This document shows positions 2,977 through 37,138 of a stretch of DNA of 64,000 bases, piece by piece (the first letter of the stretch is position 1; every line of letters starts with the position of its first letter). Origin of the DNA: a virus (lineage: Duplodnaviria; Caudoviricetes); the IMG/VR virus record IMGVR_UViG_3300021256_000008, positions 21,079-85,078 of that record; one strand, 5' to 3'. The notes below the pieces were generated by a model. The model made no database searches, was not told the origin of the DNA, and was given only the letters and a program-made list of their open reading frames with translations. A program made the translations under genes and the position numbers.

Positions 2977-3728
2977 CAGAGCATTCCTCCGGTCGCTTCA
3001 ATTGTAACTCGCCCGTTTCCGCTGAAAGTCAGAACATTTTCGCCCTGTTCAAACGAAATGGCGTAAAGCTCATTCGTTCCGCGATTCAGCGGATAACTTG
3101 TTCCCTGGTATGTAACGCTCATTCCCGGAGCGCTGCACTGAATAACGGTCGGCCCCGAAACATCTCCGGTCGAAATATAGACGACTCTCGCCGTTCCATT
3201 GACAGGGAGATTCTTATAGCTCTTGATAACGCCAGTTTCGAAATTAAACGGATCCCAGAGCCAGTCGTCTCCACCGGTATATAGCTGTCTTTTATATGGA
3301 TCAACCGTATATTTGATTGTGATTGTCGAATTTCCGGGACTGGAATTCCATTCGTCGATCGTAAAGCGGCCTTTATAATAATAACCTGGGTCATCGTCAA
3401 GAATTGCCCGATAGTTATATCCCTGAAGGTATTCCATGATCTCTGTATATCGCTCATACCACTCATCATATGCGGCGTTATACTCAACCTGTCCGGAATT
3501 GATGACAATAAACTCCCATGATCCAGTTCGAGCCCCGTAAGTTACACGGCCGGAAACAGAGTCAGTTAAATCGATAATTCCATCGCCGCCCGGAATATCC
3601 ACAAAATGCGTTTTCGCCGAGGGCGGATTAAAAATCGGTCTGGAGCTTGGGACCAGATGCCAGTCGTCCCAGGTATTCTTATTTCCGATCGTGACGGAAT
3701 GAAACTGCTTCGCCTGCGTCGAACTCAC
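2976..3728 (-). CDS. Distal tail protein (Dit)-like, 250 aa
   Basis: Position between TMP and tail tip; motifs TWDDWHL...P, G.RTGSWEF, DDDPGYYYKGR resemble siphovirus Dit. Confidence 0.75.
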   Translation of the reverse strand: MSSTQAKQFHSVTIGNKNTWDDWHLVPSSRPIFNPPSAKTHFVDIPGGDGIIDLTDSVSGRVTYGARTGSWEFIVINSGQVEYNAAYDEWYERYTEIMEYLQGYNYRAILDDDPGYYYKGRFTIDEWNSSPGNSTITIKYTVDPYKRQLYTGGDDWLWDPFNFETGVIKSYKNLPVNGTARVVYISTGDVSGPTVIQCSAPGMSVTYQGTSYPLNRGTNELYAISFEQGENVLTFSGNGRVTIEATGGML

Positions 3729-13370: not shown

Positions 13371-15386
13371 TTATGCAACTTCCTCTTCGAGAACGATGAA
13401 GGAGTACAGACGAGTGGTCGCACCGGAAACGCGGGTCTCGATCAGAGACTTCAGCTGGTTGAAGTCAATGTCAAAGTCGGTGAAATGAGTAATTTCGCCG
13501 CCCTTGGTGGAACCGATGTTATAATCATTCAGGTTACCGATGATAGCAAGCAGACGATAGGTCTTTGCACTTGCGCCTTCGCCAACGGTACGGGTCAGAT
13601 TCTCGAATTCGGGAACGTTGTAAACGCCGTTGACGCCGAGCGTAGAGGTGAGTTCAGCCTTATCCTTGTACAGACGACGACCGTTCAGATCCTTCGCGAG
13701 CTGAATCTTATTGAAGAAACGCTGAGCGCAGAACATATCCATGTTGCCAGAACCACGATAATCGATCATAGCATCAAGGATGGTCTCCTCGACGGCCTGA
13801 GCATACACATAGTTCGCACCAAAGCCCGGATCATTCTCTGCGGCGGTAGCAGAAACAACCTTACGAATGGTGTAAACGCCGTTGTCGGTCCAGATAGGAC
13901 GAATGCGATCTTCAAAGATCTTATCGTCGTCGTTGAGAGCACGACCATCGCCGATCAGGATAGCACGAGCAAGTTCCTTCTCGAGCTGCATACGGTCAAT
14001 GCCGTACTGATAAGTGACATAATCGAAGTCGGTAATATCAACAACGTCATCACGGTTCAGGGCACTCTTGGCATAGATAGTCTGAGGCTCGGTGGTACGC
14101 TTCACAACTGCATAGTTCTCAAGCAGCGTCTTAGCCTTACCCTTCTGATAGCCCTTTGCACGGAGACCGTCGACCTCACGAATATCAACATAAGAAGTGC
14201 GAACACGGCTAAACGGGCTACGATGGACCTTGTTAAGAACAGTCTTAACCCAAGCCTGATCGTTGGTAACGAGCTCCGGAGCGCCCGGGCGAACATCATG
14301 CCACTCGGGGAACAGGGCATCCACACCGGCCGGAGTCTGGCCGGAGGGATAAGAGGTGAAGCCACTGACCGGAGCCAGATCGTCATGGCTCAGAGAATTC
14401 TGTTCGGCATAGGCATTGAGGGCCTCTTTGAAGCTGCCATACTTTTTCGCAACGTCAATAATATGCCCCTGATCCTCATGAGAAATATAGTTGGTCGGAC
14501 GGGCGGCATCAGTGTCTGCAAAAGCGTTAAAATTCATGTTATCTCCTCCAATATCATCATGTTCGACATTATCGTCGTCACTGTCTTTGCCTTCAGCTGC
14601 CTTAGCAACAAGGAACTGAAGGACCTTCATCTGCTTAGAATTCATAGTGTTCAGAACATCCTGAACAGTTTCATCTCCATTATCTTCGTCGTCGGCATGC
14701 TCGAGAACTTCACCTTCGTCGGGGTCGTTGAGATCATCGTGCTCAACTTTGTTCTCTGCCGCCGCCTGAGCGACAATAAAAGAGACGACTTTACGCTGCT
14801 TATCGGTCAGGGTGTCAAGAACATCCTGAACGGTTTCGTTATCGTCCATGTCTTTTTCTCCTTTTTCATTCTTGTCGTTATCATCATCGTCGTCGTCAGA
14901 ATCTGCATGAGCAAGTTCCGGCGGATAATCATCGCCGACATAAATATAAGCTTCATCCATGAGCGTCTCGCAGTCGTCACCGTGAACGACAACGGGGTAG
15001 ACAATCTGAGCACCCATATTGGCTCCGGCAAGCACAAGGCTTACTTCCTTAATTGAACCGTGGAGAACATCTCCGCCCTGCTGCTGCAGCTGATTGGCCC
15101 AAATAGAAAGTGAAGTAATATCACCGTGAGCAATATCGATCTTTGCAGATTTCGCCAGATCGCTGTCATTGAGATACCCATAAAAGAAAACGCCCTCAGG
15201 TCTGTTCTCAAGATATCCATGTCCGAGAACTGCCTCAGGGCTGTCGTGATTGTGTCCCCATACAATTGGGACCCGCTGTCCGTCCTGGTGGGCGAACGCA
15301 TCGCGTCTGATCGTGCGGCCGTCAGAACACCGAATATCGTTTCTGGTGGCCCAGCCGCAGAAATCATAGCCTTTGTACTTAGCCAT
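13371..15386 (-). CDS. Fused prohead protease-scaffold-major capsid protein (HK97 fold), 671 aa
   Basis: N-terminal HK97-type protease (GWAT.NDIRCSDGRTI, WGHNH, LSIWAN, EVSLVLAGAN); acidic middle with two helical repeats; C-terminal capsid domain (ELARAILIGDG, FDIDFNQ.K.LIETRVSG). Confidence 0.9.
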   Translation of the reverse strand: MAKYKGYDFCGWATRNDIRCSDGRTIRRDAFAHQDGQRVPIVWGHNHDSPEAVLGHGYLENRPEGVFFYGYLNDSDLAKSAKIDIAHGDITSLSIWANQLQQQGGDVLHGSIKEVSLVLAGANMGAQIVYPVVVHGDDCETLMDEAYIYVGDDYPPELAHADSDDDDDDNDKNEKGEKDMDDNETVQDVLDTLTDKQRKVVSFIVAQAAAENKVEHDDLNDPDEGEVLEHADDEDNGDETVQDVLNTMNSKQMKVLQFLVAKAAEGKDSDDDNVEHDDIGGDNMNFNAFADTDAARPTNYISHEDQGHIIDVAKKYGSFKEALNAYAEQNSLSHDDLAPVSGFTSYPSGQTPAGVDALFPEWHDVRPGAPELVTNDQAWVKTVLNKVHRSPFSRVRTSYVDIREVDGLRAKGYQKGKAKTLLENYAVVKRTTEPQTIYAKSALNRDDVVDITDFDYVTYQYGIDRMQLEKELARAILIGDGRALNDDDKIFEDRIRPIWTDNGVYTIRKVVSATAAENDPGFGANYVYAQAVEETILDAMIDYRGSGNMDMFCAQRFFNKIQLAKDLNGRRLYKDKAELTSTLGVNGVYNVPEFENLTRTVGEGASAKTYRLLAIIGNLNDYNIGSTKGGEITHFTDFDIDFNQLKSLIETRVSGATTRLYSFIVLEEEVA

Positions 15387-18848: not shown

Positions 18849-19295
18849 TCAAAGATGTCTTAGATACATCTGATTAGTGGTACGTGAAACGCGATTCATA
18901 AATTCCTGACCGGCTGTAATGATACTCGGATCCAGAGTTACAACACTCTGTTTGCCGAATTCCTTCTCCATTTGCTGTACCCATCTGGCGCCTTTTTGTG
19001 CTGTTTTAACGGCACGTGCTGACTGCACTCTAGACTTCGCGTACTGCTTTTGAGCGTAATTCGGAGACCGGAATAAAACTCTGGAATCCGCTGCTGCGCC
19101 TTTTGCCATACGCTTACGGGCCTTCTCGTCGTGCTTTTCGATCTTTCTCTGGAACTTTCCGACTTTCTTGGCGGCTTTCTCATAAGCCCGCTGAGGATTA
19201 TGCCGAACGCCCCATTTCATACCGAGAACACCGTAATGAGCGAGACTTGGAGAGCCGTTTTCATCATAGGATACAATGTAATCGGACATAATCAA
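18849..19295 (-). CDS. HxGxxGxKWGVR-motif protein (DUF7211-like), 148 aa
   Basis: SLAHYGVLGMKWGVR followed by a highly basic region; the DUF number is from memory and needs checking. Confidence 0.6.
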   Translation of the reverse strand: MIMSDYIVSYDENGSPSLAHYGVLGMKWGVRHNPQRAYEKAAKKVGKFQRKIEKHDEKARKRMAKGAAADSRVLFRSPNYAQKQYAKSRVQSARAVKTAQKGARWVQQMEKEFGKQSVVTLDPSIITAGQEFMNRVSRTTNQMYLRHL

Positions 19296-19852
19296 TGCTC
19301 CCTTCGAACTGTATACTTCTTTCCTGTAACAAATCCGGAAGCATCCGGTTGGTTGTATTTAGTGGCCTGATACGCATTAATGCTGTTATACGCCAGATTA
19401 CCCGGAATACCCGCAAGGGCATGGGCCAATGCCGTTTCACCAGCAGTTACAAAACGGTTGTATTCCTTGCTGTTAATTGTCATCCCTTTATTGCTTGCAT
19501 CAGAAAGAATCTTACTTACAAGCTTTTCGCCGGAACGAATAGCGTCGTCATATTCCTTGGCTTTTGCGGTATGCTCTTCATACTTATCGTCTTTACTCTT
19601 CTGATAAGCTTTTTCAGCTTTGATCTTTTCTTTTGCGCTTTTGTAACGAAGGCGAGCATTTTCGGATTCGATCTTATTCAGGCTTCTCTGTGTACTACTC
19701 GCGCTGTCTGAATTATACCGTTTCTTTCCGGCATCGGTTAACGTACCGTCCTCATTTTGATACCGCCGGACGCCCCATTTCTGTCCTTTGATACCATGGT
19801 GAGCGAGGTAATCGTTTTCATAATAATCCATAAAGTCGCTCATGGTTATCAC
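19292..19852 (-). CDS. HHGxKGxKWGVRR-motif protein (DUF7211-like), 186 aa
   Basis: YLAHHGIKGQKWGVRRYQNEDGTLT. Confidence 0.6.
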   Translation of the reverse strand: MITMSDFMDYYENDYLAHHGIKGQKWGVRRYQNEDGTLTDAGKKRYNSDSASSTQRSLNKIESENARLRYKSAKEKIKAEKAYQKSKDDKYEEHTAKAKEYDDAIRSGEKLVSKILSDASNKGMTINSKEYNRFVTAGETALAHALAGIPGNLAYNSINAYQATKYNQPDASGFVTGKKYTVRREH

Positions 19853-19857
19853 CTCAT

Positions 19858-21603
19858 TTATTCAAACATGTCCCTGTTGATCCTATAGGCAACATAGGCA
19901 TCGAGCATCGCAGAGACATTATCGATCTTCTCTTCGCGATGCTTCTTTCTTAATTTTCTGTTTCCATTAGTATCTTCCTGGGCAACACAATGGCCCATAC
20001 AGAACTGCATAATATCTTCGTCAAAAATAAGTTCACGGCGTTCCGCAAGAACCTTCAGTTCACCAAGCGGAACTGACTCGGTCTTTACACCCTGAGGAAC
20101 TTTTTCAATTCCGTATGGTCCGTTATCGATCTCCCAACGATTGATAAACACCGGCGCATTATATGGGTCGTATCCAACGCACATGACGTTATAGCGCTTA
20201 TCGTTAATAAACTGATAGAGATCTTCATAAACCATACCGATATCAAGAACGGTGGAGTCCATAATAACAAGACTACCTTCACGAAGGAACTTTTCATATT
20301 CCTGTCGAAGTGCTCTCGGAAGCTTTTGGAACGTATAGGACGTAATATAGCTTCGCGCCTTAACTCCAAAGCCTCTTCCCGGAATCGGGAACAGAAATGT
20401 AAAAGCACAAAAGTCGTCACCGAGCGAAAGGTCAGCACCCATCGAGCAGCTCATACCATCGAAGTACTGGCGGTGATGCGGCTTGGTTTCTTCATAAGTA
20501 AAGAAATACGTGTAACCTTCACATGGGATTCCAAAACGTTTGGCCAGAATATCATTACGGTTAGAAGGGCTCTTTTCAGAACGTTCTTTCTCGAGCTTAT
20601 AAGTCTCGTACGTTACTGTGTGACCAAGATTCGGGTTGGCCTTCAGCCACATATTCGGATTCTCGAGTTCCGTAAGATCGTCAAGCTTATACCACCAGAT
20701 GGACACATGAGGATTGTAGTAATCGCCCTTTAAGATGTCCATCAGTTCCATTTTGATTGTATCGCCAGGCCCATTTCGAACGGTTCCTTCCGATGATGTC
20801 GCAACAATTAGCCAATCGTCAACTTTGGCCGCTCCCTGTTCAAGAGCGCCAACGACATCTTCGTTTACAACTCCGGAAAGCCATTCGTCAACGGTTGAGT
20901 ATTTGCATCTTGCGCCCTGAAGCTTATCAATGCGCATAGGACGCGACTCGATAATGGACTGAGTTTCGAAGTTTTCAATACCCTTCTTGGTGGCTGCAAT
21001 CTTGACACGATCCGCTTTCTTCCCGGTCGTATTCTGGAGCGATCCTTCTGTCATGAACTGAAGAACCGGGCCTCTTGCTCTGGCTATCGCGATCTTAAGA
21101 GGCAACAGCGTTTCTTCGGATTGGCGTATCGTAGGTGCCGTGATTATTTGGTCAGTAGATTCTTCGTCCATGATCAGACCATACGCTTGAATACATGTGC
21201 AGTATAGACTTTTTGCTGCGCCACGACCGACAATCAGATACTGCTTATTACGCAACCGCTTCTTAATGTACCGCGTCTCCAGATGAACTCCGGGACCGTA
21301 GCTGTTCGGCACCCAGACATCTCGCCGGATGAAATAGAACCAAGAATAAATATCCTCGGCCCATAATTTAAATGAGTCGAGGAGTCTAAGGTCTCCGCCG
21401 TCCGTAAGGGTTAGTTCCGATTCACAAAAGTTGATCCAACCGTCCATGACCGTATCGTCATAGTAGCAGCGCGGATCGGCGATAAGACCGTCTATAATGT
21501 TCATTTGAAGAGCGACTTCCCGATTCACCGGAATCTCTCTTCTTAGTACGGCGTCTCGAAAAGCGCCGTAATATTTTGGTACAGCGGTGTTCGATAACGC
21601 CAT
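19858..21603 (-). CDS. terL: Terminase large subunit, 581 aa
   Basis: Walker A GRGAAKS, Walker B STVDEW, nuclease GADLSLGDD and KIDNVSAMLDA. Confidence 0.95.
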   Translation of the reverse strand: MALSNTAVPKYYGAFRDAVLRREIPVNREVALQMNIIDGLIADPRCYYDDTVMDGWINFCESELTLTDGGDLRLLDSFKLWAEDIYSWFYFIRRDVWVPNSYGPGVHLETRYIKKRLRNKQYLIVGRGAAKSLYCTCIQAYGLIMDEESTDQIITAPTIRQSEETLLPLKIAIARARGPVLQFMTEGSLQNTTGKKADRVKIAATKKGIENFETQSIIESRPMRIDKLQGARCKYSTVDEWLSGVVNEDVVGALEQGAAKVDDWLIVATSSEGTVRNGPGDTIKMELMDILKGDYYNPHVSIWWYKLDDLTELENPNMWLKANPNLGHTVTYETYKLEKERSEKSPSNRNDILAKRFGIPCEGYTYFFTYEETKPHHRQYFDGMSCSMGADLSLGDDFCAFTFLFPIPGRGFGVKARSYITSYTFQKLPRALRQEYEKFLREGSLVIMDSTVLDIGMVYEDLYQFINDKRYNVMCVGYDPYNAPVFINRWEIDNGPYGIEKVPQGVKTESVPLGELKVLAERRELIFDEDIMQFCMGHCVAQEDTNGNRKLRKKHREEKIDNVSAMLDAYVAYRINRDMFE

Positions 21604-21622: not shown

Positions 21623-23122
21623 TTAATCAATTTGCCAAACATAACGAATGTTTTTACGATTCTCAGGAGTGTCCTCAAAACCAAGATCTTTAAGAACAAC
21701 ACTATCTAGATTTTCTTCTGCTTTGTCATAAGCTTCTCTTGCTTTTTTCATTGCAGGATCGTTATTGAGTTGACGAACTCCTTCTAAAAAGTTGTTATCA
21801 AGATCGTATTTTTTGTATAGACTTTCATTGACGTTTTCTAGTTCGTCCCATTTGTCCTTAAGATCGGCAAGCGCCCTTTCATGATCTTTGGACACCGAAC
21901 GACTGTCGTACCAATTGCCGCTTTTTTCATTATAAGCTTTAGAAATCGCAATATACTTTCCGATATCAGCATCAGAAGGGTTTTCGCCAGTTGCCGATTT
22001 CAAATAGTCTTCCTGAGCCCTCGCACGCTCGTCACGGTCTTTAATATTAGACATGCGATCAAGTTCGAGTTCGCCGTCTTTTTCTAATTTATCCCAATAT
22101 TTTTTATAGATTTCTTTATCCTGTTTGGAAGCTTTCCACTTTCCGTTGCTTCTTTTTCGGTATACATTTCGAAAGGTTCCGTTACTGGCATACCTGGTTT
22201 TTCCTTCTTCGGTCAGTGTCCCGTCTGCATTCTGGTAGCGTCTTACGCCCCATTTCATACCAAGAATGCCATGATGAGCGAGAAAATCTTCGTCGTCTGA
22301 AATATCTTCCACATTAGTTCCGAGTGCGTCATGTGATACATACCAGTCGGGATCCCGCCCGGTGTACCAGTTTGCGTTTTTCGGAAGATTATCAACAATA
22401 TCTTGGACAAGGTCTTCGGTTGACTTCACTTCCGGAATAGACGAAGCTACTTTCTTATTAAGTACATCAACGGAATTAGACCACTTGACGTATTCGGCGA
22501 GTTCATTTGCCGTGAACGCCTTCTGATTCTTCAGAATATCATCAACTGACATGTTTCGAAGAAGTGCCGCCTTGTCAACTTTCTTCTCTTCCGGTTTTTC
22601 ACCGATCTTGAGCATTCTCTTACCGTTGACTTTTCCGGAGTCAACCAGTACGTTGTTAACTTCGGCCATAAGGTTATACATACCCTTTGCGTTTTCAGCG
22701 AGGCCTTTAATCTTGCCGAGATTCTGAGAAAACTGCTGCATTTTGTTCCATCCGCGCTGAATTTCAGCATCACGAATATCTTTCAGCGCAGTATCGGTTC
22801 TGATCTTATTCGTAAGATCACGGATCTCATCGTCGGAAAACTCGGTGCGGTACTTATACAGTCTGCTCGGATGTTTACGAACATGCTCTTTCAGAGCTTC
22901 ATGCTTTTCGGCTTCTGACTCTTTTGCCTTGGCGGCTTTTTCTTCCTTCAGCTTACTTACTTTATCCTTAATCTTTTCTCGGACTGATTTGTCAGAAATT
23001 CCGCGTCTCTGTCGCCCGAGCTGTGTGAGAGATCCGTCTTCGTTCTGATAACGACGAATTCCCCATTTCTGGCCTTTAATGCCGTGATGGGCCAGATAAT
23101 CATTGTTGAGTTCAAATTCCAT
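21623..23122 (-). CDS. Protein with two tandem HHGxxGxKWG modules, 499 aa
   Basis: YLAHHGIKGQKWGIRRYQNEDGSLT at the N-terminus and FLAHHGILGMKWGVRRYQNADGTLT internally. Confidence 0.65.
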   Translation of the reverse strand: MEFELNNDYLAHHGIKGQKWGIRRYQNEDGSLTQLGRQRRGISDKSVREKIKDKVSKLKEEKAAKAKESEAEKHEALKEHVRKHPSRLYKYRTEFSDDEIRDLTNKIRTDTALKDIRDAEIQRGWNKMQQFSQNLGKIKGLAENAKGMYNLMAEVNNVLVDSGKVNGKRMLKIGEKPEEKKVDKAALLRNMSVDDILKNQKAFTANELAEYVKWSNSVDVLNKKVASSIPEVKSTEDLVQDIVDNLPKNANWYTGRDPDWYVSHDALGTNVEDISDDEDFLAHHGILGMKWGVRRYQNADGTLTEEGKTRYASNGTFRNVYRKRSNGKWKASKQDKEIYKKYWDKLEKDGELELDRMSNIKDRDERARAQEDYLKSATGENPSDADIGKYIAISKAYNEKSGNWYDSRSVSKDHERALADLKDKWDELENVNESLYKKYDLDNNFLEGVRQLNNDPAMKKAREAYDKAEENLDSVVLKDLGFEDTPENRKNIRYVWQID

Positions 23123-29991: not shown

Positions 29992-30588
29992 ATGAAAAAA
30001 TTCATTTCAATGATGCTGGTTCTGACGCTGCTTGGAAGTTTATTCTCTGTAACATCTTTTGCTGATGCCAAATCTGACATTGAAGTAATGTCAAAAATAG
30101 CAGACAAACTTTTTGATACTTCAGATGACATGGATGTCCAGGTATTCTTTTCAGCAGCTACTTATGAACTGTTACGTAGAAAAATTATTTCGGTTGAGCA
30201 ATGCAATGAAATACTTTCAATCATTCAGTCACCGGATAAAAATACTTATACATTCGGTAAGGGAACCTTTATTGTCGGTACAGATCTGAAAGCCGGCACC
30301 TATAATATCTTTTGTGAATCTACGGACCAGGATAATTACTCGGACAGCATAAGTTCTTTCGGAGATCTCTATACCCAGTATGGGATGCAGGAATATGCAG
30401 ACGCTTTTAGTTCTCTTGGTGGTCTTGCTGATTCGATGAAGTCTATTACTGTTACGACTTACTCTTCCAGAGGTCTGATGGATAAGTACTACACACTGAA
30501 AAATAATGAATCAGCTCGTATCATTCTGACAGATGGAATGCAGCTTGAAATTAGCGGCGGAACTGCAAGACTTGAGTTCGTAAGATAA
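29992..30588 (+). CDS. Secreted/surface protein with a signal peptide (moron-like), 198 aa
   Basis: MKK + hydrophobic core + SFA-D cleavage-like site; GTFIVGTDLKAGTYNI motif; SD AGAAAGGA; own promoter. Confidence 0.75.
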   Translation: MKKFISMMLVLTLLGSLFSVTSFADAKSDIEVMSKIADKLFDTSDDMDVQVFFSAATYELLRRKIISVEQCNEILSIIQSPDKNTYTFGKGTFIVGTDLKAGTYNIFCESTDQDNYSDSISSFGDLYTQYGMQEYADAFSSLGGLADSMKSITVTTYSSRGLMDKYYTLKNNESARIILTDGMQLEISGGTARLEFVR

Positions 30589-31358: not shown

Positions 31359-31383
31359 CTCCTTTCTTGCCTAGTTTTACCAT

Positions 31384-31537
31384 AGTCTCGATACTTTTTA
31401 GGTGAGTATGATGCTAGTTTTCACTAGAGTATGGACGGAGCAAATGACACGAAAGGAGAACCCTTGGAAGAAGAGGAATACGGCAATGAGCAAAACCGTT
31501 AACGAATACATCATACTCACTTAAAAAGCATCGGACT
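31384..31537. repeat. Long imperfect inverted repeat (about 29-nt arms)
   Basis: AGTCTCGATACTTTTTAGGTGAGTATGATG (31384-31413) pairs with CATCATACTCACTTAAAAAGCATCGGACT (31509-31537). Confidence 0.85.
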
Positions 31538-31550
31538 AAAATATAAACTA

Positions 31551-31623
31551 TCCCCCCGGAGGAAAATTTAGGACCCGCGCGATTATGGGCCCCCTATATT
31601 ATATTTTGACCCTCCCCCGGGTG
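31551..31623. other. GC-rich island in a non-coding gap; putative packaging/genome-end site
   Basis: CCCCCCGGAGG...GACCCGCGCG...GGGCCCCC...CCTCCCCCGGG in an AT-rich ~480-bp gap next to HNH and the terS candidate. Confidence 0.4.
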
Positions 31624-31834
31624 TTTATATCCGATTTATATTTAGTTTATGTTCATAAAAGACGAATGAACAAGCGCAAAGCGCATAGAAGTTGTAAGAA
31701 ATGCAACTAGATAGCGATTCGTTATGAGATAGTTGACATCTATACCTATAATCAATCTATAATCATACAAAAAGCTATCTAGTTGCGGTCTAGTTTCAGT
31801 TTATTTCGTTTCTATTATTACAATTTTATTCTTT

Positions 31835-32101
31835 CTAACTCTCTACGACTTTTACATAACATACTTCTTTTCCAGTAACAGGACTAATCATTCGAAGATC
31901 CATCGCTACAATCTCATCACAAGCATCTTCGATAGCCTGATCCATTTCTTTTTCCGTAAGATCGGGAGAAATAGCAGCAATGCGCGCGAGGTAGGACATG
32001 GAATAATAGCCACATTCTTTTTCGTCATACGCTGCCCAACGATCATATTGTTTGAATGGATCAAACTTATTGTCACTTGTTGTTATTAGTGTTCGCGCCA
32101 T
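31835..32101 (-). CDS. Conserved hypothetical protein, 88 aa
   Basis: TT.DN.FDPF.Q.D.W..YD...GYY...YLARIA; overlaps the end of the RNA polymerase gene. Confidence 0.65.
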   Translation of the reverse strand: MARTLITTSDNKFDPFKQYDRWAAYDEKECGYYSMSYLARIAAISPDLTEKEMDQAIEDACDEIVAMDLRMISPVTGKEVCYVKVVES

Positions 32102-34883
32102 TGTTCAAATCGCCTCCCATTCCATTAAAGTTCTTGAATTCTTTTGCTAAAGCATCTACTGAAACTCCTAATTCTTTTGCTACAGTTGAAGGTGCATAGC
32201 CAGAATTCAATAATACTCTTGCACGACTTTTTGTCGTTGCTTTCATTCCGGTAGAGGCTCTTGGTAAAGCTCTTTCTTTTATTTTAGTTTTATCTGAGTA
32301 TCTTAAAACTTTTTGGAACTGAGTATCTGAAATAGCTCCAGCCTGAATTGCTTCCCATTCACGATCAGTAAGATCTATTCTGTAACGTTTTTCATGTCTT
32401 CCGCCATTTACAGCGTCTCTTGCATTATCTAAAGCTTTAGCGGCAAGTTTTCTTCTCTTATCAGCATGATCTTTATCTCTAAGAGAAGGATCAGCCGCTT
32501 CTTTTGCTCTCATAACATTTGAGGCAATGATCTGAGCTTGACGCTCTTTCGGAGCCTCGAGTTCTGCTCGAGCAATCTTCTTTGCAAGAGTTCCGTCTTT
32601 TCCTACAACATCGTCGTAGACTTCACGTGCGGTCTTGTTCTGTTCAAGCCGACCAGTAGAACGAGCTTCTTTACGAGCTTCATTTGCCAGCGCTTTCATT
32701 CTATTAGAATGCTCAGCATACACTTCTTCAATGTAATAACCGGCGGACAGTTCATGAGCATCGTCTACAACCGATAATTTTTCAACTTTGTCAATATTGT
32801 CTACCCATTTACCATTCTTATCTTTATGCTTATGACCCGTAGGACGATAGATCTTTTCACCTCTATCATAACGTTCCTTCTCTTCCGGTGTCATGGTAGA
32901 GTAGGCATAGATTTCCTTTCTCTCAGGAATTCTGGTCTCACCCTTAGCTCTCGAAATCAGTGTGGAAGCGCCGCCACCATCCTGATAAAGTTCTTTAAGT
33001 TGAGCGATGCCATTATCTTCGTAAGACTTTTTCCAGTCAAGGTTGTGTTTTTCGGCATCTATTACGCACATTGAATGCCTAACGGCTCGTTCGATTTCGC
33101 TTGGATCAGCGCCCTTGATCGTCATGTCCGTAATCAAGTTGGATGCCATACCCATCTGAACGCCTTTATTAAAGCCGTCGCCCTTCTTTCCATCCTTGCT
33201 TTTACCGGTTCGAATCGGATCGTTCGGATCTCTCGTGTAGTAATCGGACGGATTGTAATCGATGAGACCTTCCATAGGAGGAGCTGTCTTTAGCTTTTGG
33301 CCTTTTGTCGGAATAACAAGAACTGTATCGCCGTCATAATCTGCGCCAGATAGCTGGTTTGCAGAACGTGAATTAATCCCAATTGCGTGCGCTGCAGATG
33401 TACCAAGAAGCGCTTTTCCTTCAGGATTGTTATTATTTACAATCAGCCTTGGAATCTGGAAAACGCCTTCATGCGGATGACGAACAAGAATGACTTCTTC
33501 TCCCTGTTCATACATAGGAGCATAAACTTCGTTATCTTTAAGACTCGTAACAGGTAAAATTGCAAAAGCACCTTGGCGCGGCAATGCAGCGGCTTTCAAA
33601 TGCACGGCGGCAGAATCACATGTATCTGCAAACTCTTCGCAAAGTTGCCTCTTAAGAGTCGGATTTGTGATAGATTTAAGTTCCTCAAATTCATCGCTCA
33701 TTTCGCCATAGCGGAGATCGAGTTGCTTTTTTGCAAGCTGTGGCCACTGCTTCGAAAGAAATTGGGATGACAGGTTTTTCTTCCACGTATCCCAGTCTTC
33801 ATCATCGTTTACGATGTTAATCGGCGACGTATGTTTTTCACCATTAGGGCCATCGTATTCCCACTGCCTAAAAGATGCTCCAAACGGATTTTCGGCATCG
33901 ATTTTTCCTTTATCGTCCGTTTTCATTTCTTTAAGAACGGTGTTATCACCTTTCCCAATCATCGGAACATCTGAATGCTTATTTGTATTAAACACAATAT
34001 CGACGCCGGGAGGCATCTTTGAAGGATCACCATAAACGGCCATTCCCTTCAGATAATGTGTCCCATCAACACCAATTCGAACCTGGGCATAGTTTCTGCC
34101 GCCCAAATATAAATCATCGGTTCCTGGACGAATCTCGATAACTCCGTCTTTCTCCTGTCCGCCGCCAGGTTCACCAGTATTGTAGTTCACCATGACGCGG
34201 CTTGAATCGATACTCGGGATCGGCTTTCTGTGAACTGCAGTTTCGCCGTAGTCCTCAAAATATAAACCTTCAGGCGATGTTACTTTCCCAAGATTCTCTT
34301 TAAGCTCTGCTTTGGTTACTTCGCCATCACAAAGAATTTTTAGATTCGTAAACTGCTTCGGATTACTGACCTGAGGAAGGCGATAATCATAGACGTTGTA
34401 TCCTTCGTCTTCAAGAAGCAGTCTTGCAGCATGAAGCTGCTCTTCACTGATATTCAGCTGACGGTTAACACCTTCACCGATGTCCAGATACGGTTTGTCT
34501 TTCAGATACTCTTTCAGCTCGTTAGCGATATTCTGTACAGTATCTTCGCGACGTTTCTTTGATGGATCCAAAAGATTACGAACAGTACCTTCTGAAACTC
34601 CAAGCTTTTCAGCAATTGCCGTGTTACTCCAGCCTTTATCTTTCAGCTTCAGGGCTGTCATCTGATTTTCGGCACCGATTTGATTCTTATAGATCTTTCG
34701 CATGGCGACATAATCGCCGGTACTCAAACCCATAGCTTCAGCAATTTGCTTCTTTGATAGTCCTTGTGCGGCAAGGTCGTCAGCGCGCTGAAGAAAGTTT
34801 TTATTACGCTGAGGATTCTTTCCGGATCCCCAAGGGTAACGTCCAGAATGTCTAGGTGTTCCGTAATGTTTTAAAATATTCAT
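32073..34883 (-). CDS. Single-subunit two-barrel (DPBB) RNA polymerase, YonO/QDE-1-like, with HTH domains
   Basis: LSGADYDGD (33327-33347), upstream LVRHP, and AQVRIG...LKGM resemble RdRP-family signatures; two N-terminal HTHs (KKQIAEAMGLS, NTAIAEKLGVSEGTVRN) and a C-terminal HTH (STVAKELGVS); ATG 34883 preferred over TTG 34895. Confidence 0.8.
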   Translation of the reverse strand: MNILKHYGTPRHSGRYPWGSGKNPQRNKNFLQRADDLAAQGLSKKQIAEAMGLSTGDYVAMRKIYKNQIGAENQMTALKLKDKGWSNTAIAEKLGVSEGTVRNLLDPSKKRREDTVQNIANELKEYLKDKPYLDIGEGVNRQLNISEEQLHAARLLLEDEGYNVYDYRLPQVSNPKQFTNLKILCDGEVTKAELKENLGKVTSPEGLYFEDYGETAVHRKPIPSIDSSRVMVNYNTGEPGGGQEKDGVIEIRPGTDDLYLGGRNYAQVRIGVDGTHYLKGMAVYGDPSKMPPGVDIVFNTNKHSDVPMIGKGDNTVLKEMKTDDKGKIDAENPFGASFRQWEYDGPNGEKHTSPINIVNDDEDWDTWKKNLSSQFLSKQWPQLAKKQLDLRYGEMSDEFEELKSITNPTLKRQLCEEFADTCDSAAVHLKAAALPRQGAFAILPVTSLKDNEVYAPMYEQGEEVILVRHPHEGVFQIPRLIVNNNNPEGKALLGTSAAHAIGINSRSANQLSGADYDGDTVLVIPTKGQKLKTAPPMEGLIDYNPSDYYTRDPNDPIRTGKSKDGKKGDGFNKGVQMGMASNLITDMTIKGADPSEIERAVRHSMCVIDAEKHNLDWKKSYEDNGIAQLKELYQDGGGASTLISRAKGETRIPERKEIYAYSTMTPEEKERYDRGEKIYRPTGHKHKDKNGKWVDNIDKVEKLSVVDDAHELSAGYYIEEVYAEHSNRMKALANEARKEARSTGRLEQNKTAREVYDDVVGKDGTLAKKIARAELEAPKERQAQIIASNVMRAKEAADPSLRDKDHADKRRKLAAKALDNARDAVNGGRHEKRYRIDLTDREWEAIQAGAISDTQFQKVLRYSDKTKIKERALPRASTGMKATTKSRARVLLNSGYAPSTVAKELGVSVDALAKEFKNFNGMGGDLNNGANTNNNK

Positions 34884-34884
34884 A

Positions 34885-35457
34885 TCAGCCTTCAACCTCT
34901 CTCAACGAATCCTGGACCCAGCCATCTTTTTCTTTGATGTTATAGATGACTTCTTCAACGCGGTCCTTATCAGGACTAAACTCCTGAATATCATCATTCT
35001 GATAAATACGCAGATTCACTTTTGTGTTAAGCGGATTTACGCCATAGGCCCGCTCATATTCCAAAAGAAAAAGAGCAGCATAAATTTCAAGCTGCTCCAT
35101 ATGAACCGGTCCGCTGCCGGTTTTGAGATCATGAACACGAAGAATACCGTGATCAAAATTAATTGCATCGCTATGGCCAAAGCATGAGTCAGAATACTTT
35201 AAAGCAACTTCAGGCGTCATTCCGAAACCAATTGCATCGTTTACATATGCAACCAGTGTTTGAGTTGAACCGCGAAGTTTCAAACCTTTATTTATCAAGC
35301 GAGCTGCAATGTCATGAAGTTCTGTACCTTCTGCAGCCGCTTTCTGTGCTCTGATATAATTTCTTATCTGATCCTGTGTATAATTTAACCAATACGGTTT
35401 ACTTGGACTCAGAAGAGCATGCTTGCCCTCCAGTTCTAAATGCTTGTTGAAGTTCAT
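34885..35457 (-). CDS. PD-(D/E)XK nuclease-like protein (DUF2800/Cas4-like)
   Basis: HALLSPS...W, EGTELH, FGHSDAI, VHDLKTG, QL.IYA; start moved to MNFNKH at 35457 (SD AGGAGG). Confidence 0.7.
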   Translation of the reverse strand: MNFNKHLELEGKHALLSPSKPYWLNYTQDQIRNYIRAQKAAAEGTELHDIAARLINKGLKLRGSTQTLVAYVNDAIGFGMTPEVALKYSDSCFGHSDAINFDHGILRVHDLKTGSGPVHMEQLEIYAALFLLEYERAYGVNPLNTKVNLRIYQNDDIQEFSPDKDRVEEVIYNIKEKDGWVQDSLREVEG

Positions 35458-35728: not shown

Positions 35729-35777
35729 TTCGAAATCCCGAAGCAGATGCTAAAAATGCATATCTGCTTCCCTCTCT

Positions 35778-35802
35778 ACTATAGTCGCTGTAAATTTTAC
35801 GA
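35778..35802 (-). promoter_or_regulatory. Phage promoter motif, copy 1
   Basis: TCGTAA-AATTTACAGCGAC-TATAGT. Confidence 0.7.
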
Positions 35803-35871
35803 ATCGCGTAAAATGCGCCAAATAAGAAAAAGGAAACAGAATGCTAAAAATGCATATCTGCTTCCCTCTCT

Positions 35872-35896
35872 ACTATAGTCGCTGTAAATTTTACGA
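35872..35896 (-). promoter_or_regulatory. Phage promoter motif, copy 2
   Basis: TCGTAA-AATTTACAGCGAC-TATAGT. Confidence 0.7.
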
Positions 35897-37138
35897 TTTT
35901 CGTGATTTAAAGAAAACGCTTTCGTTGAAGTTCCGTTTTCGTTTAAGAGCTCTACTAATTGCAATATCAATAGGCGCCATTGATCTGAAGCTGTAGTAAT
36001 ATAAATCGTGGAAAGGAGTATTTCGCCGATCTATACGACCCATCGCTTGTTCGGTTGCTTTGTACGAATAACTCGGAGAATAGAATAGCATGGAGTCCGT
36101 TGTCGTGCAGTTCCATCCTTCTGCTCCCGCAGCATACTGAACAAGATAGACCCAGCGAATATCAGTCGGAACTTCTTCATGCCGGTGCCCGTTCCATTCC
36201 CTGACAACTGTGCCTTCCGGCCAGTTCGCATTCTTGAGAATATCAAGTTCATAATCGAAGTTATAAAAGATAATGAGTCTTGGATGTTCTTGCGCAATTT
36301 CCAAAACATTTTCAATTCTCGACGGATCTGAATTTACAATTTTCCGGAGAAGATAACAAAGTTCGCTGACATTCTCAACAGGCCTGTTTTCGAATATATT
36401 CCATCTTTCGCGCATGAGCACCCTGTAAGACTCACGGTCATACTCTACCGGTATAACTTCACTATGCCGCTCTGTCGGCTTCTGATATTCAATGTTCACA
36501 AGAATTGAATCCCGCATACGTTGCAAAATATAATCGTCGATGTAGCGGTCAACCTGCGGATACTTGGAATAGCGATTATAGACGACATGACGCATCTCGA
36601 ACTCTCTCTTAGTCCGAAAGAATCCGTTCGCAATAAAGATTGCCAGATAGTCCATCCAACAGTCTCCTGGTGTTGCCGTGAGAAATATCCAGTGATTTGA
36701 CTTTGAAATCTTTACGAACGCTCTTGCCCATGTCTTGTAACTCACCACTCTCTGTTCGTCAAATAGAAAGACTGCGTCTTTTACATCGATATACTTCTGA
36801 ACATTATTCCATGAATCGACAGTTACCTTTACCTTGTCTTTGTAGGATGACTTTTCAGGATTCGTCGAAAGTCCAAAAGGCTCCATCTCTTCATCCCATT
36901 CACCATCGTCACGTTTTTTGGCAGTGGTGATAATGTAAAGATCCTTCGGCCAGAGCATTGGAACAATATCATTCTTAAGACCTCGTTCCTTTCCGTTCAT
37001 CTGGCCGCCGCAAACCTTCGTGAAGTACCAGGCAAGGCCGGTCCGACTTTTGCCGGAACCGACTCCACCAATCAGAATATTACCGTTCTGCAATTGTTCA
37101 AGTGCCTTCAGCTGACCTGCATCAAGCTCCGGAGTCAT
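35891..37138 (-). CDS. SF2 (SNF2/DEAD-like) helicase, 415 aa
   Basis: GGVGSGKS, FDEQ, LTATP, EQAMGRIDR motifs. Confidence 0.9.
   Translation of the reverse strand: MTPELDAGQLKALEQLQNGNILIGGVGSGKSRTGLAWYFTKVCGGQMNGKERGLKNDIVPMLWPKDLYIITTAKKRDDGEWDEEMEPFGLSTNPEKSSYKDKVKVTVDSWNNVQKYIDVKDAVFLFDEQRVVSYKTWARAFVKISKSNHWIFLTATPGDCWMDYLAIFIANGFFRTKREFEMRHVVYNRYSKYPQVDRYIDDYILQRMRDSILVNIEYQKPTERHSEVIPVEYDRESYRVLMRERWNIFENRPVENVSELCYLLRKIVNSDPSRIENVLEIAQEHPRLIIFYNFDYELDILKNANWPEGTVVREWNGHRHEEVPTDIRWVYLVQYAAGAEGWNCTTTDSMLFYSPSYSYKATEQAMGRIDRRNTPFHDLYYYSFRSMAPIDIAISRALKRKRNFNESVFFKSRKS

Follow-up and report, generated by a model that had tools for sequence, protein, structure and literature searches.

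The minus-strand gene at 32073..34883 of the window (the whole 64,000-nucleotide stretch of phage DNA analysed here) encodes a 936-residue, single-chain RNA polymerase with two double-psi beta barrels and helix-turn-helix (HTH) units at both ends. On balance, we favour the reading that this protein is a promoter-specific single-subunit two-barrel DNA-dependent RNA polymerase of the 1706-ORF75/PHROG 4291 family that is probably loaded into virions.

Gene structure and genomic neighbourhood

The open reading frame extends from an ATG at 34883 down to 32073, stop codon included, whereas the plus-strand reading of 32073-34883 is full of stops and was rejected. A Shine-Dalgarno-like GAAGG site precedes the ATG, which overlaps the stop of the upstream exonuclease gene (TGA-T-ATG), and we therefore place the start there and not at the TTG at 34895. 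The assignment as a polymerase draws on the translation, the match to PHROG 4291, the AF2 model and fold matches. The translation contains the sequence features named in the initial annotation for a protein of about 936 residues (LSGADYDGD, LVRHP and AQVRIG...LKGM), with LSGADYDGD at residues 511-519 (nt 33327-33353), R468-H-P470 within VILVRHPHEG, and YAQVRIGVDGTHYLKGM at residues 265-281.

The gene lies in a block at the genome end that reads helicase, VRR-NUC, RecB-like exonuclease, polymerase and small ORF, an order identical to that in phages 1706, ReqiPepy6 and HotFries. The small gene overlaps the polymerase 3' end (31835..32101, minus strand) and resembles 1706 orf76 (phrog_4303, E 1.9e-22); a gene of the same type also follows the polymerase in 1706, ReqiPepy6 and HotFries. 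A GC-rich cos-like gap occupies 31359-31834. Elsewhere the phage encodes a tyrosine integrase, and megablast of 20 kb around the polymerase gene against phage records gave no match. The polymerase gene adjoins genes for an SSAP, the helicase, VRR-NUC and the RecB-like exonuclease, a setting that would suit an RNA polymerase employed as a primase for DNA replication. The phage, however, already has a 1386-aa primase-polymerase (phrog_4210 and primase families), and the HTH units together with 34 oriented, gene-proximal motifs (see below) point to transcription, so that a priming role appears highly improbable.

Family membership

The protein matches PHROG 4291 over its full length (E 5.2e-303), with residues 2-917 of 936 aligned to positions 10-906 of the 909 in the profile, and in 249 of 250 phage records the alignment takes in 80% or more of the query. 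This family, to which Lactococcus phage 1706 ORF75, FP_oengus and some 250 actinophage isolates belong, comprises 2023 clusters at 50% identity (E<=1e-3). The polymerase is not a new kind of protein, as the family has been predicted computationally before: it was read as an HTH and RdRP-like protein with DxDGD (10.1101/842583), and phage 1706 has been listed as a YonO-like family (PMC2919709). Our literature search found no bench work on the PHROG 4291 polymerases. To the published description we add the three-block promoter, the shared N-terminal peptide and the virion link. The only connection to YonO itself that we found is a partial match at residues 445-586 to phrog_8308 (847 positions, unnamed; E 9.6e-7), which we take, as a guess, to be the YonO family.

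Fold and catalytic core

An AF2 model built with 83 sequences (pLDDT 85.5, pTM 0.75) contains two double-psi beta-barrel (DPBB) domains that form one catalytic core, as in the two-barrel superfamily, in support of the polymerase call of the initial annotation. Foldseek ranks QDE-1 first (E 7e-8), followed by P74 gp62 (5e-6), P23-45 gp96 (2e-4) and then beta-prime/Rpb1 chains. The initial annotation had also pointed to YonO and the crAss-like phi14:2 gp66 for structural comparison, and here the outcome was divided, with QDE-1 recovered, the YonO structure absent among the PDB matches listed, and gp66 (entry 6VR4) absent among the listed Foldseek or VIA matches; crAss-like BFVD matches were weak (E 0.06-0.08). 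When the PDB was searched by sequence, using either the protein or an 83-sequence profile, only HTH domains and a borderline match to the P23-45 gp96 loop (E 0.59) came up; kinship to solved polymerases rests on fold.

The first, beta-like barrel spans residues ~222-360 (33804..34220, minus strand) and was delimited from invariant residues and from structural alignments, which begin at residue 222-224 for RDR2, QDE-1 and gp62. It carries Q267-V-R269...K279-G280, beside which D246, D257 and K302 are nearly invariant. Beta-like barrels of the superfamily are marked by an invariant Asp and two Lys (Rpb2 D837, K979 and K987), for which these residues are candidate counterparts. The second, beta-prime-like barrel covers residues ~430-530 (33294..33596, minus strand) and holds R468-H-P470 (nt 33474-33482) upstream of the Asp loop D515-Y-D-G-D519 (nt 33327-33341); the R-x-P of the superfamily corresponds to Rpb1 R446/P448 (PMC2919709). 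Two alignments, one of 148 and one of 83 relatives (41-76% identity), show D515, D517, D519, R468, P470, Q267, R269, K279 and G280 to be invariant, as is G518 of the DxDGD loop in the 148 sequences, and DYDGD, DFDGD or DCDGD occurs in each of the 121 sequences among the matches listed. As judged from these alignments, the catalytic core is under purifying selection as an active site, because its catalytic residues stay invariant in 148 sequences at that level of divergence. After the catalytic barrel, the model contains a pair of helices (573-589 and 594-613; 33045..33167, minus strand) in which M577, G578, N582, D586, D609, K612 and H613 are invariant. The pair falls inside the region that aligns structurally to Rpb1 (residues 428-640) and is a candidate for a bridge-helix-like element.

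Conservation of this kind bears on the names under which the family is filed. Most of the ~250 phage records (SEA-PHAGES) say 'helix-turn-helix DNA binding domain protein', as would befit a regulator that acts mainly by binding DNA and whose polymerase core has decayed, but every catalytic-site residue is invariant in 148 sequences and the core is modelled at high confidence, which makes this the least probable of the readings we weighed. RefSeq and PHROGs, on the other hand, name the family RNA-dependent RNA polymerase, an enzyme that would copy or amplify phage or host RNAs. The best structural matches, QDE-1 and RDR2, are indeed enzymes named RNA-dependent, PHROG 4291 bears the RdRP name, and the Pfam RdRP family PF05183 gives a weak match confined to residues 507-550 (E 0.0084). 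This match, at 15.3 bits, stays below the 23.8-bit cut-off, and the host of the gene is a dsDNA phage without an RNA stage. QDE-1 itself also takes DNA templates (PMC9508822), and both YonO (PMC5467207) and the P23-45 enzyme (10.1101/2022.12.01.518664) are described as DNA transcriptases. Given in addition the three HTH units and the promoter-like placement of a conserved DNA motif, we consider an RNA-templated role very unlikely and continue with a DNA-dependent enzyme as the preferred reading.

HTH units and a putative phage-specific promoter

Pfam and the model place two HTH units near the N-terminus (34569..34775, minus strand) and one at the C-terminus, in agreement with the initial annotation, which had read two built-in HTHs at the N-terminus and one at the C-terminus. 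A weaker unit at residues ~37-55 is followed by a sigma-region-4-like unit at residues 75-105 (HTH_23, E 7.7e-13), with a Sigma70_r4_2 match in the same N-terminal region (E 1.5e-7), and the AF2 model has helices across residues 30-129. The C-terminal unit (residues ~882-923; 32115..32240, minus strand) is indicated by HTH_7 at 887-909, an HTH_23 site and helices at 882-916. HTH units at both ends, combined with DxDGD, are the features by which the family was previously described (10.1101/842583).

A three-block promoter motif, TCGNA-N6-ACA-N5-TATAAT, recurs 34 times in the genome, always on the coding strand and always outside the late genes. Its blocks start at positions 1, 12 and 20 (11 and 8 bp apart), and the PWM scan finds no site between genome 15 and 56.8 kb, the late-gene region. 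The strict pattern finds 18 sites on the coding strand against none on the opposite one (0.05 in shuffles). The motif is conserved across phages with the same block spacing: the strict pattern yields 14/0 in ReqiPepy6 against 0.0 in its shuffles, phage 1706 has nine PWM matches on the coding strand of its early region, and HotFries has four copies. Two tandem copies, TCGTAAAATTTACAGCGACTATAGTAGAG, at 35803..35773 and 35897..35867 (span 35773..35897, minus strand; PWM 40.0 and 39.2), stand upstream of the operon of VRR-NUC, RecB-like exonuclease and polymerase. The position of the polymerase gene behind its own promoter type suggests self-amplifying expression.

A reading of the motif as a sigma-A promoter was rejected, because its 14-nt spacing to the TATAAT block does not fit; it also has no TG extension, and a consensus scan misses it. 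Host sigma-A might nevertheless make use of the TATAAT block, above all in Actinobacteria, whose promoters can often do without a -35 element. No sigma-factor gene was found in the phage genome, and a literature search for the promoter string found nothing. Among the orthologues listed as conserved across the phage group, the polymerase is the sole one described as DNA-binding (10.1101/842583), and we infer that its HTH units are the partner of this promoter.

An N-terminal peptide shared with head-module proteins

The polymerase begins MNILKHYGTPRHSGRYPWGSG, that is, a short leader followed by L-K-H-Y-G-T-P-R-H-S-G-R-Y-P-W-G-S-G, and residues 1-28 (34800..34883, minus strand) are predicted to be disordered (pLDDT <50 for 1-13 and 17-28). 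Within this peptide, S13, G14, R15 and G21 are invariant in the 148- and 83-sequence alignments, and most of the 120 nearest relatives carry an identical motif. Family leaders range from 4 to 171 aa (all 270 members) and are 27.6% acidic; where the motif is present (267 members), the His is found in 255/267, with Leu or Ile at -2 in 217/267.

Genes for DUF7211 proteins surround that of TerL (19858-21603) in the head module, at 21623-23122 (two copies; E 7.5e-20), 19292-19852 (E 8.3e-9) and 18849-19295 (E 7e-10), all on the minus strand, and their products carry a similar leader and an L-A-H-[HY]-G junction. Across all six frames of the 85-kb genome, [LIVM]-x-H-[HY]-G-x(3-10)-W-G has five matches, one at the polymerase N-terminus and four at DUF7211 sites, which are spread over three head-module proteins. 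Shuffling of residues yields 0.015, a figure to be read with the caveat that these very sequences supplied the pattern. An acidic leader with an L-x-H-Y-G junction is common to the polymerase and to DUF7211 proteins near the terminase in four phages, with DDYLAHYGI against DDFLAHYGV in ReqiPepy6 and SLQHYG against ILQHRG in 1706. The two peptide profiles align in hhalign at 92% probability over 16 columns, although its P-value is inflated because the inputs were picked by a regex that already required L-x-H-x-G. Pfam DUF7211 (PF23847) gave no match to the polymerase peptide at E<=10, either alone or in a six-frame genome scan, which recovered exactly the four head-module sites, and a literature search for DUF7211 found nothing. 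The resemblance to head-module leaders that the initial annotation noticed is real but loose at the level of these peptides, holding for the pattern and not for the Pfam family. In all four phages, the protease-capsid fusion also has repeated hydrophobic-x-His sites in its acidic linker, with its capsid domain nearly free of them. We regard the N-terminal peptide as a candidate capsid-loading and protease-site tag.

Probable virion association

The evidence from virions rests on the GenBank labels of relatives. The depositors of phage 1706 label both ORF75 and the DUF7211 protein ORF7 'structural protein' (EU081845). The polymerase homologue of ReqiPoco6 carries the same label, and the notes in the ReqiPepy6 record only repeat those of 1706. 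The 1706 labels reportedly derive from SDS-PAGE with LC-MS/MS. No virion proteomics was found in the FP_oengus paper. The packaging suggested in the initial annotation thus gains support by homology, and for the phage studied here it would follow from the relatives and the peptide.

The same promoter-specific polymerase might instead stay outside the virion, like YonO or P23-45 gp64, to be made after infection or induction and take over middle or late transcription, with the N-terminal peptide doing a different job, for instance in partner binding or turnover. Consistent with this, the gene belongs to the replication module and lies downstream of its own type of promoter, and the integrase marks the phage as temperate, so that at prophage induction the first polymerase must arise without a virion enzyme, through host-driven expression. 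The structural label of 1706 ORF75 and the leader and junction common to head-module proteins in four phages argue the other way, and the 40 kb of late genes lack the promoter, as would be expected more of an early or middle enzyme than of a late one. We consider an unpackaged polymerase possible but clearly the less probable reading, and retain the packaged, promoter-specific enzyme as our working model.

Proposed mechanism

In this model, the second barrel would contribute its DYDGD loop and R468/P470 to catalysis, and the first would contribute Q267/R269/K279. The promoter TCGNA-N6-ACA-N5-TATAAT, which heads early and middle gene cassettes as well as the polymerase's own operon, would be read by the pair of N-terminal HTH units, possibly along with the C-terminal one. 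Packaging is the least certain step: copies made late may enter the procapsid by way of the disordered leader and the L-x-H-Y-G peptide, and the prohead protease may then trim the leader after the His. Delivered with the DNA, the polymerase would allow early transcription to begin before any help from host polymerase.

A broader version, which we put forward tentatively, concerns a supercluster of siphophages of Firmicutes and Actinobacteria. Here an acidic leader followed by hydrophobic-x-His-[Tyr/His]-Gly, in its DUF7211 or polymerase variant, would load HK97-type proheads and double as a prohead protease site cut after the His, bringing in basic internal proteins as well as a promoter-specific two-barrel RNA polymerase. 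The injected polymerase would start host-independent transcription, and the 26-bp three-block promoter would have been inherited with the enzyme across phyla.

If this holds, a machine of ~105 kDa would combine a cellular-type catalytic core with its own promoter readers, a cognate promoter and perhaps a peptide address for capsid loading, offering a tractable system both for sigma-free promoter finding by minimal two-barrel enzymes and for protein loading and delivery by siphophages. It would also correct the annotation in hundreds of phage genomes, for the family is very large and includes ~250 cultured phages, many of them from teaching collections, yet is mostly annotated "HTH DNA-binding protein".

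Comparison with known systems

The closest counterparts are members of the same family: 1706 ORF75, the FP_oengus 'putative RNA polymerase', ReqiPepy6 gp106 and the actinophage homologues are full-length relatives, 33-45% identical in isolates, and metagenome homologues reach 99%. They share the HTH-core-HTH layout, the N-terminal peptide, the neighbours and the place at the right genome end. The polymerase described here differs in coming from an uncultured 85-kb temperate gut-type phage, in its very short leader (4-5 residues before the His) and in lacking the N-terminal extension of the 1706 protein (1029 aa).

T4 internal proteins bear a short N-terminal leader, ending in an L-x-E protease site, that loads them into proheads; the parallel with our peptide goes no further than analogy, and the proposed His-specific site is putative. 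The crAss-like gp66 is a DNA transcriptase. Together with the N4 virion polymerase, which has an unrelated right-hand fold, phi14:2 gp66 provides the working analogy of an injected enzyme that starts early transcription at phage-specific promoters. For YonO of SPbeta, we know of no HTH units or virion association. YonO is otherwise alike, a ~100-kDa single-chain two-barrel DNA-dependent RNA polymerase of a temperate siphophage (PMC5467207). QDE-1 of Neurospora and plant RDR2, eukaryotic RNA-silencing polymerases with 11-16% sequence identity to the phage protein, differ in having neither HTH units nor the N-terminal peptide and in their biology. In the Thermus phages P23-45 and P74-26, gp64/gp62 are non-virion polymerases, whereas gp96 is a virion enzyme fused to the tape measure; none has HTH units, and sequence kinship of these enzymes with our protein is limited to the catalytic loop (hmmsearch E 0.59). 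The suggestion in the initial annotation that a virion polymerase of this type would be without a characterised precedent in siphoviruses was overstated, since P23-45 gp96 has already been characterised (10.1101/2022.12.01.518664); gp96, however, enters the virion as a segment of the tape measure and does not depend on a free N-terminal peptide of the kind proposed here.

Fold and active site of the polymerase

The plus strand of 32073-34883 has no open frame, and the minus strand holds a single long ORF (34895/34883..32073). The likely start codon is the ATG at 34883, five bases past a GAAGG site; because it overlaps the preceding gene's stop codon (TGA-T-ATG), both genes are probably translated together. 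All motifs named in the initial annotation are present in the 936-residue translation, including LSGADYDGD at residues 511-519, VILVRHPHEG with R468 and P470, residues 265-281 (YAQVRIGVDGTHYLKGM) and an N-terminus reading MNILKHYGTPRHSGRYPWGSG. The two N-terminal HTHs and one C-terminal HTH described there correspond to Pfam units at residues 75-105 (HTH_23, 7.7e-13; Sigma70_r4_2, 1.5e-7), more weakly at ~37-55, and at ~887-923. The sole sizeable plus-strand ORF near the polymerase, 29992-30588 (+) (198 aa), matches no PHROG and may not be a real gene.

We built an AlphaFold2 model with 83 relatives (mean pLDDT 85.5, pTM 0.75) and searched it against the PDB with Foldseek. The top match was QDE-1 (E 7e-8), followed by the Thermus-phage polymerases P74 gp62 (5e-6) and P32 gp64 (8e-6) and then plant RDR2; gp96, the virion polymerase that P23-45 carries fused to its tape measure, scored 2e-4, ahead of beta-prime and Rpb1 chains from multisubunit enzymes. 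Structural alignment gave values of 16.2, 5.2 and 441 for maize RDR2 (polymerase residues 222-863), 15.7, 5.0 and 369 for QDE-1 (223-740), 14.8, 4.6 and 361 for P74 gp62 (222-741), and about 11 for Rpb1-type chains (428-640). Invariant in an alignment of 148 sequences are Q267, R269, K279 and G280, R468 and P470, S512, G513, D515, D517, G518 and D519, together with M577, G578, N582, D586, D609 and K612 in the helices after the catalytic loop, and these columns coincide exactly with the expected active-site residues. The modelled fold and the invariant columns therefore make the assignment to the two-barrel polymerases, already proposed from the sequence, secure.

A known family in actinophages, Lactococcus phages and gut phages

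PHROG 4291 ('RNA-dependent RNA polymerase') matches the polymerase end to end (E 5.2e-303), and 1706 orf75 and ReqiPepy6 gp106 carry the same name in RefSeq. When 50,697 phage records were searched in translation, 250 contained homologues, and 249 of these span at least 80% of the polymerase at 33-45% identity. They come from phages of Arthrobacter (95), Gordonia (55), Streptomyces (54) and Lactococcus (13), from gut siphovirus contigs (12), and from phages of Curtobacterium, Microbacterium, Rhodococcus and Faecalibacterium. The family is very large in metagenomes: 8000/8000 candidates scored pass E 1e-5, and grouping at 50% identity gives 2023 clusters that pass E 1e-3, of which 765 also pass 1e-30. 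In linear genomes among the matches listed, the polymerase gene comes last among the large genes, at the right end; FP_oengus, a phage originally described as a prophage, is the sole exception, with the gene at 28.6-31.4 of 58.4 kb. In HotFries gene 56 (record L008, 40574-40664), the annotated start at 40664 is downstream of an in-frame conserved peptide, ALAHYGVLRRSGRYPWGSG; the true start is probably upstream, and other SEA-PHAGES records may share such a late-annotated start.

A preprint on BI-cluster Streptomyces phages reports that the same protein carries HTH domains N- and C-terminally together with a DxDGD loop and matches the Pfam RdRP in HHpred, proposes it as a possible RNA polymerase, and traces homologues to just two sets of phages, an actinophage supercluster and the Lactococcus 1706/Faecalibacterium Oengus group (10.1101/842583). 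Phage 1706 is also among five 'YonO-like' families in a 2010 review (PMC2919709), and P23-45 gp96 is a characterised two-barrel polymerase delivered by a siphovirus (10.1101/2022.12.01.518664). Thus, while the observation behind the initial annotation is confirmed and its interpretation supported, the suggestion that a siphovirus virion RNA polymerase would be uncharacterised was overstated. The polymerase adds one more protein to the PHROG 4291-type family, which had already been described by computation and for which our literature search found no paper on activity, promoters or packaging. Three leads were not found in the searchable literature, namely a putative cross-phylum promoter, a leader shared with DUF7211 proteins in four phages, and the 'structural protein' link of 1706 ORF75.

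Genome setting and a three-block promoter-like motif

The 85,078-bp virus record, whose bases 21079-85078 form the window, is rated complete, with a terminal repeat of 62 bp and nearly all genes on the minus strand. Its tyrosine integrase (genome 11551-12039 (-), outside the window; Pfam Phage_integrase, E 8.8e-16) indicates a temperate phage, and no sigma-factor gene was found in the genome. In transcription order, the minus strand encodes a primase-polymerase (1386 aa), an annealing protein and a helicase, then two tandem putative promoters, VRR-NUC, a RecB-like exonuclease, the polymerase and a small conserved gene (phrog_4303). A role for the polymerase as replication primer-maker is unlikely, because the phage encodes its own primase-polymerase. 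After the phrog_4303 gene, a 476-bp non-coding gap (31359-31834) separates the polymerase module from the HNH/terminase module and contains GC-rich runs (CCCGGGGGAGGG, GGGGGCCC, CCTCCGGGGGG) in DNA that is otherwise AT-rich; it is likely the cos region and corresponds to where linear genomes of related phages physically end. Beyond it lie a 1706-orf4-like gene, an HNH endonuclease, a 1706-orf6-like virion protein, lysis genes, a 499-aa DUF7211 protein (PF23847), TerL, two further DUF7211 proteins, the portal, a protease-capsid fusion and tail genes, the gene order being that of 1706.

A weight matrix made from 13 sites and run on the whole genome located 34 promoter-motif sites, 34/34 on the coding strand, confined to genome 1.9-14.9 kb and 56.9-84.2 kb; none was found in the intervening 42 kb, where the polymerase gene and every late gene lie. 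Those at 35773-35897 (-) and 11 others fall in the window. In the consensus, a T-run precedes TCG[TC]AA-N6-ACA-N5-TATAAT-G.AGA, with blocks at positions 1-3, 12-14 and 20-25. The motif does not fit a sigma-A promoter: a distance of 14 nt between the first hexamer and TATAAT is too short, a TG extension is absent, and scanning with the sigma-70 consensus does not recover the sites. Immediately upstream of the VRR-NUC-exonuclease-polymerase operon, the motif is present in two identical copies spaced by 94 bp, within a 94-bp tandem duplication (35773-35910 (-)) whose copies are identical over ~55 bases, including a hairpin-like GCAGATATGCATTTTTAGCAT.

Two other repeats were observed. The 13-mer CTTCGGGATTTCG occurs at ~35735-35750 (-), directly upstream of the VRR-NUC start, and also upstream of 1706 orf75, where a longer unit, CTATCACGAAAAAACTTCGGGAAAACTTCGGGATT, forms two full repeats and two partial copies (record L005, ~2640-3050); this element may control the polymerase operon. 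TCAAAATGG has 15 coding-strand sites in the genome and 0 on the other strand (window range 4281-40354 (-)), several overlapping start codons (AAAATGGAAG) and others lying within genes.

A strict form of the promoter pattern occurs 18 times on the coding strand and 0 times on the other in the window phage (uncultured, gut-type; 0.05 in shuffles), and 14 and 0 times in ReqiPepy6 (Rhodococcus, 53% G+C; 0.0 in shuffles), each ReqiPepy6 site lying upstream of small early genes and reading TCGCA-N6-ACAC-N4-TATAATGAGACCCC. Phage 1706 (Lactococcus) has nine matrix hits, all on the coding strand in the early region (about one in shuffles; for example TTCGCATGTTTTACATATACTATAGTAGAAAG), and HotFries (Streptomyces, 61% G+C) has four copies at the beginning of its early region. 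Architecture and spacing are the same in 1706, ReqiPepy6 and HotFries, all of which carry the enzyme. Since the three blocks and spacing of this 26-bp motif are kept across hosts of two phyla, host polymerases are unlikely to determine them. Of the orthologues listed as conserved group-wide, the polymerase alone is described as DNA-binding (10.1101/842583), and on the simplest reading, its HTH units would read the three-block promoter. That the enzyme is truly RNA-dependent, as databases name it, is unlikely, given that it is encoded by a dsDNA phage, has three units that bind DNA and comes with a DNA promoter. QDE-1 itself also uses DNA templates (PMC9508822).

The N-terminal leader and a possible place in the virion

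Residues 1-28 are disordered in the AlphaFold2 model, yet contain four invariant columns. The N-terminal motif was located in 267/270 family members; its leader runs from 4 to 171 residues (median 11, all 270 members) and is 27.6% acidic and 7.4% basic. Among the 267, the junction reads L/I (217), any residue, His (255), Tyr (208) and Gly, and SGR-Y-P-W-G-S-G starts exactly seven residues past the His in 244. Three terminase-flanking proteins of the window phage begin alike and match Pfam DUF7211; DYLAH-HGIKGQKWG occurs twice in one DUF7211 protein and once in another, and the terminase-flanking set also contains SLAH-YGVLGMKWG.

The resemblance recurs in the relatives. In ReqiPepy6, the polymerase reads DEDDYLAHYGI and 7/9 head-module proteins D[DS]FLAHYGV; in HotFries, EEALAHYGV faces DDVLAHYGI; and in 1706, DDSLQHYGT faces KDILQHRGV (ORF7), so that Gln precedes the His in both 1706 junctions, whereas Ala does so in the actinophages. 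The ReqiPepy6 head module (record L004, 11700-19450) encodes nine DUF7211-motif proteins, seven sharing a near-identical D[DS]FLAHYGVKGMKWG start on unrelated bodies, compared with three such proteins in the window phage, one in 1706 (two copies) and one in HotFries. The Pfam DUF7211 model gives the polymerase peptide no score, which places the polymerase outside this family, and hhalign aligned the two peptide profiles at 92% probability over 16 columns, both inputs being preselected by a pattern that includes L-x-H-x-G. Leader and junction are alike even so, in line with the resemblance noted initially.

The depositors of 1706 (EU081845) labelled both its polymerase, ORF75, and ORF7 'structural protein', and the ReqiPoco6 polymerase homologue bears this label too. 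The EU081845 label is also found on scattered genes outside the morphogenesis block, a scatter that would fit detection by mass spectrometry. Garneau et al. in 2008 reportedly identified 1706 structural proteins by SDS-PAGE with LC-MS/MS. On the best reading, the polymerase would be a promoter-specific DNA-dependent transcriptase of which a fraction is packaged and delivered: it would transcribe its own operon along with the early and middle cassettes, and some copies would be loaded into capsids and enter along with the DNA. The same enzyme could instead be produced only after infection, with no packaging. We consider this plausible but less likely, a standing it keeps because of points that argue against packaging: the label is a database entry in one or two relatives, the peptide lies outside DUF7211, and a temperate phage must, at induction, obtain its first enzyme from the host polymerase.

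Hydrophobic-x-His is a candidate site for the head protease and recurs in the protease-scaffold-capsid fusions of the four phages (window 13371-15386 (-); relatives' records L002 6971-9031, L004 22127-24277 and L008 5700-7778). Each has four to six hydrophobic-x-His sites in an acidic linker (residues ~150-335) and at most one within the capsid domain, with one at an equivalent place just ahead of that domain (NSLSH-DD, TVLKH-AI, YALKH-GI, TALEH-GV). Taken together, the shared leader, the label and these sites would fit a putative capsid-loading leader trimmed in the prohead, in the manner of the T4 internal proteins, whose capsid-loading leader is trimmed within the prohead.
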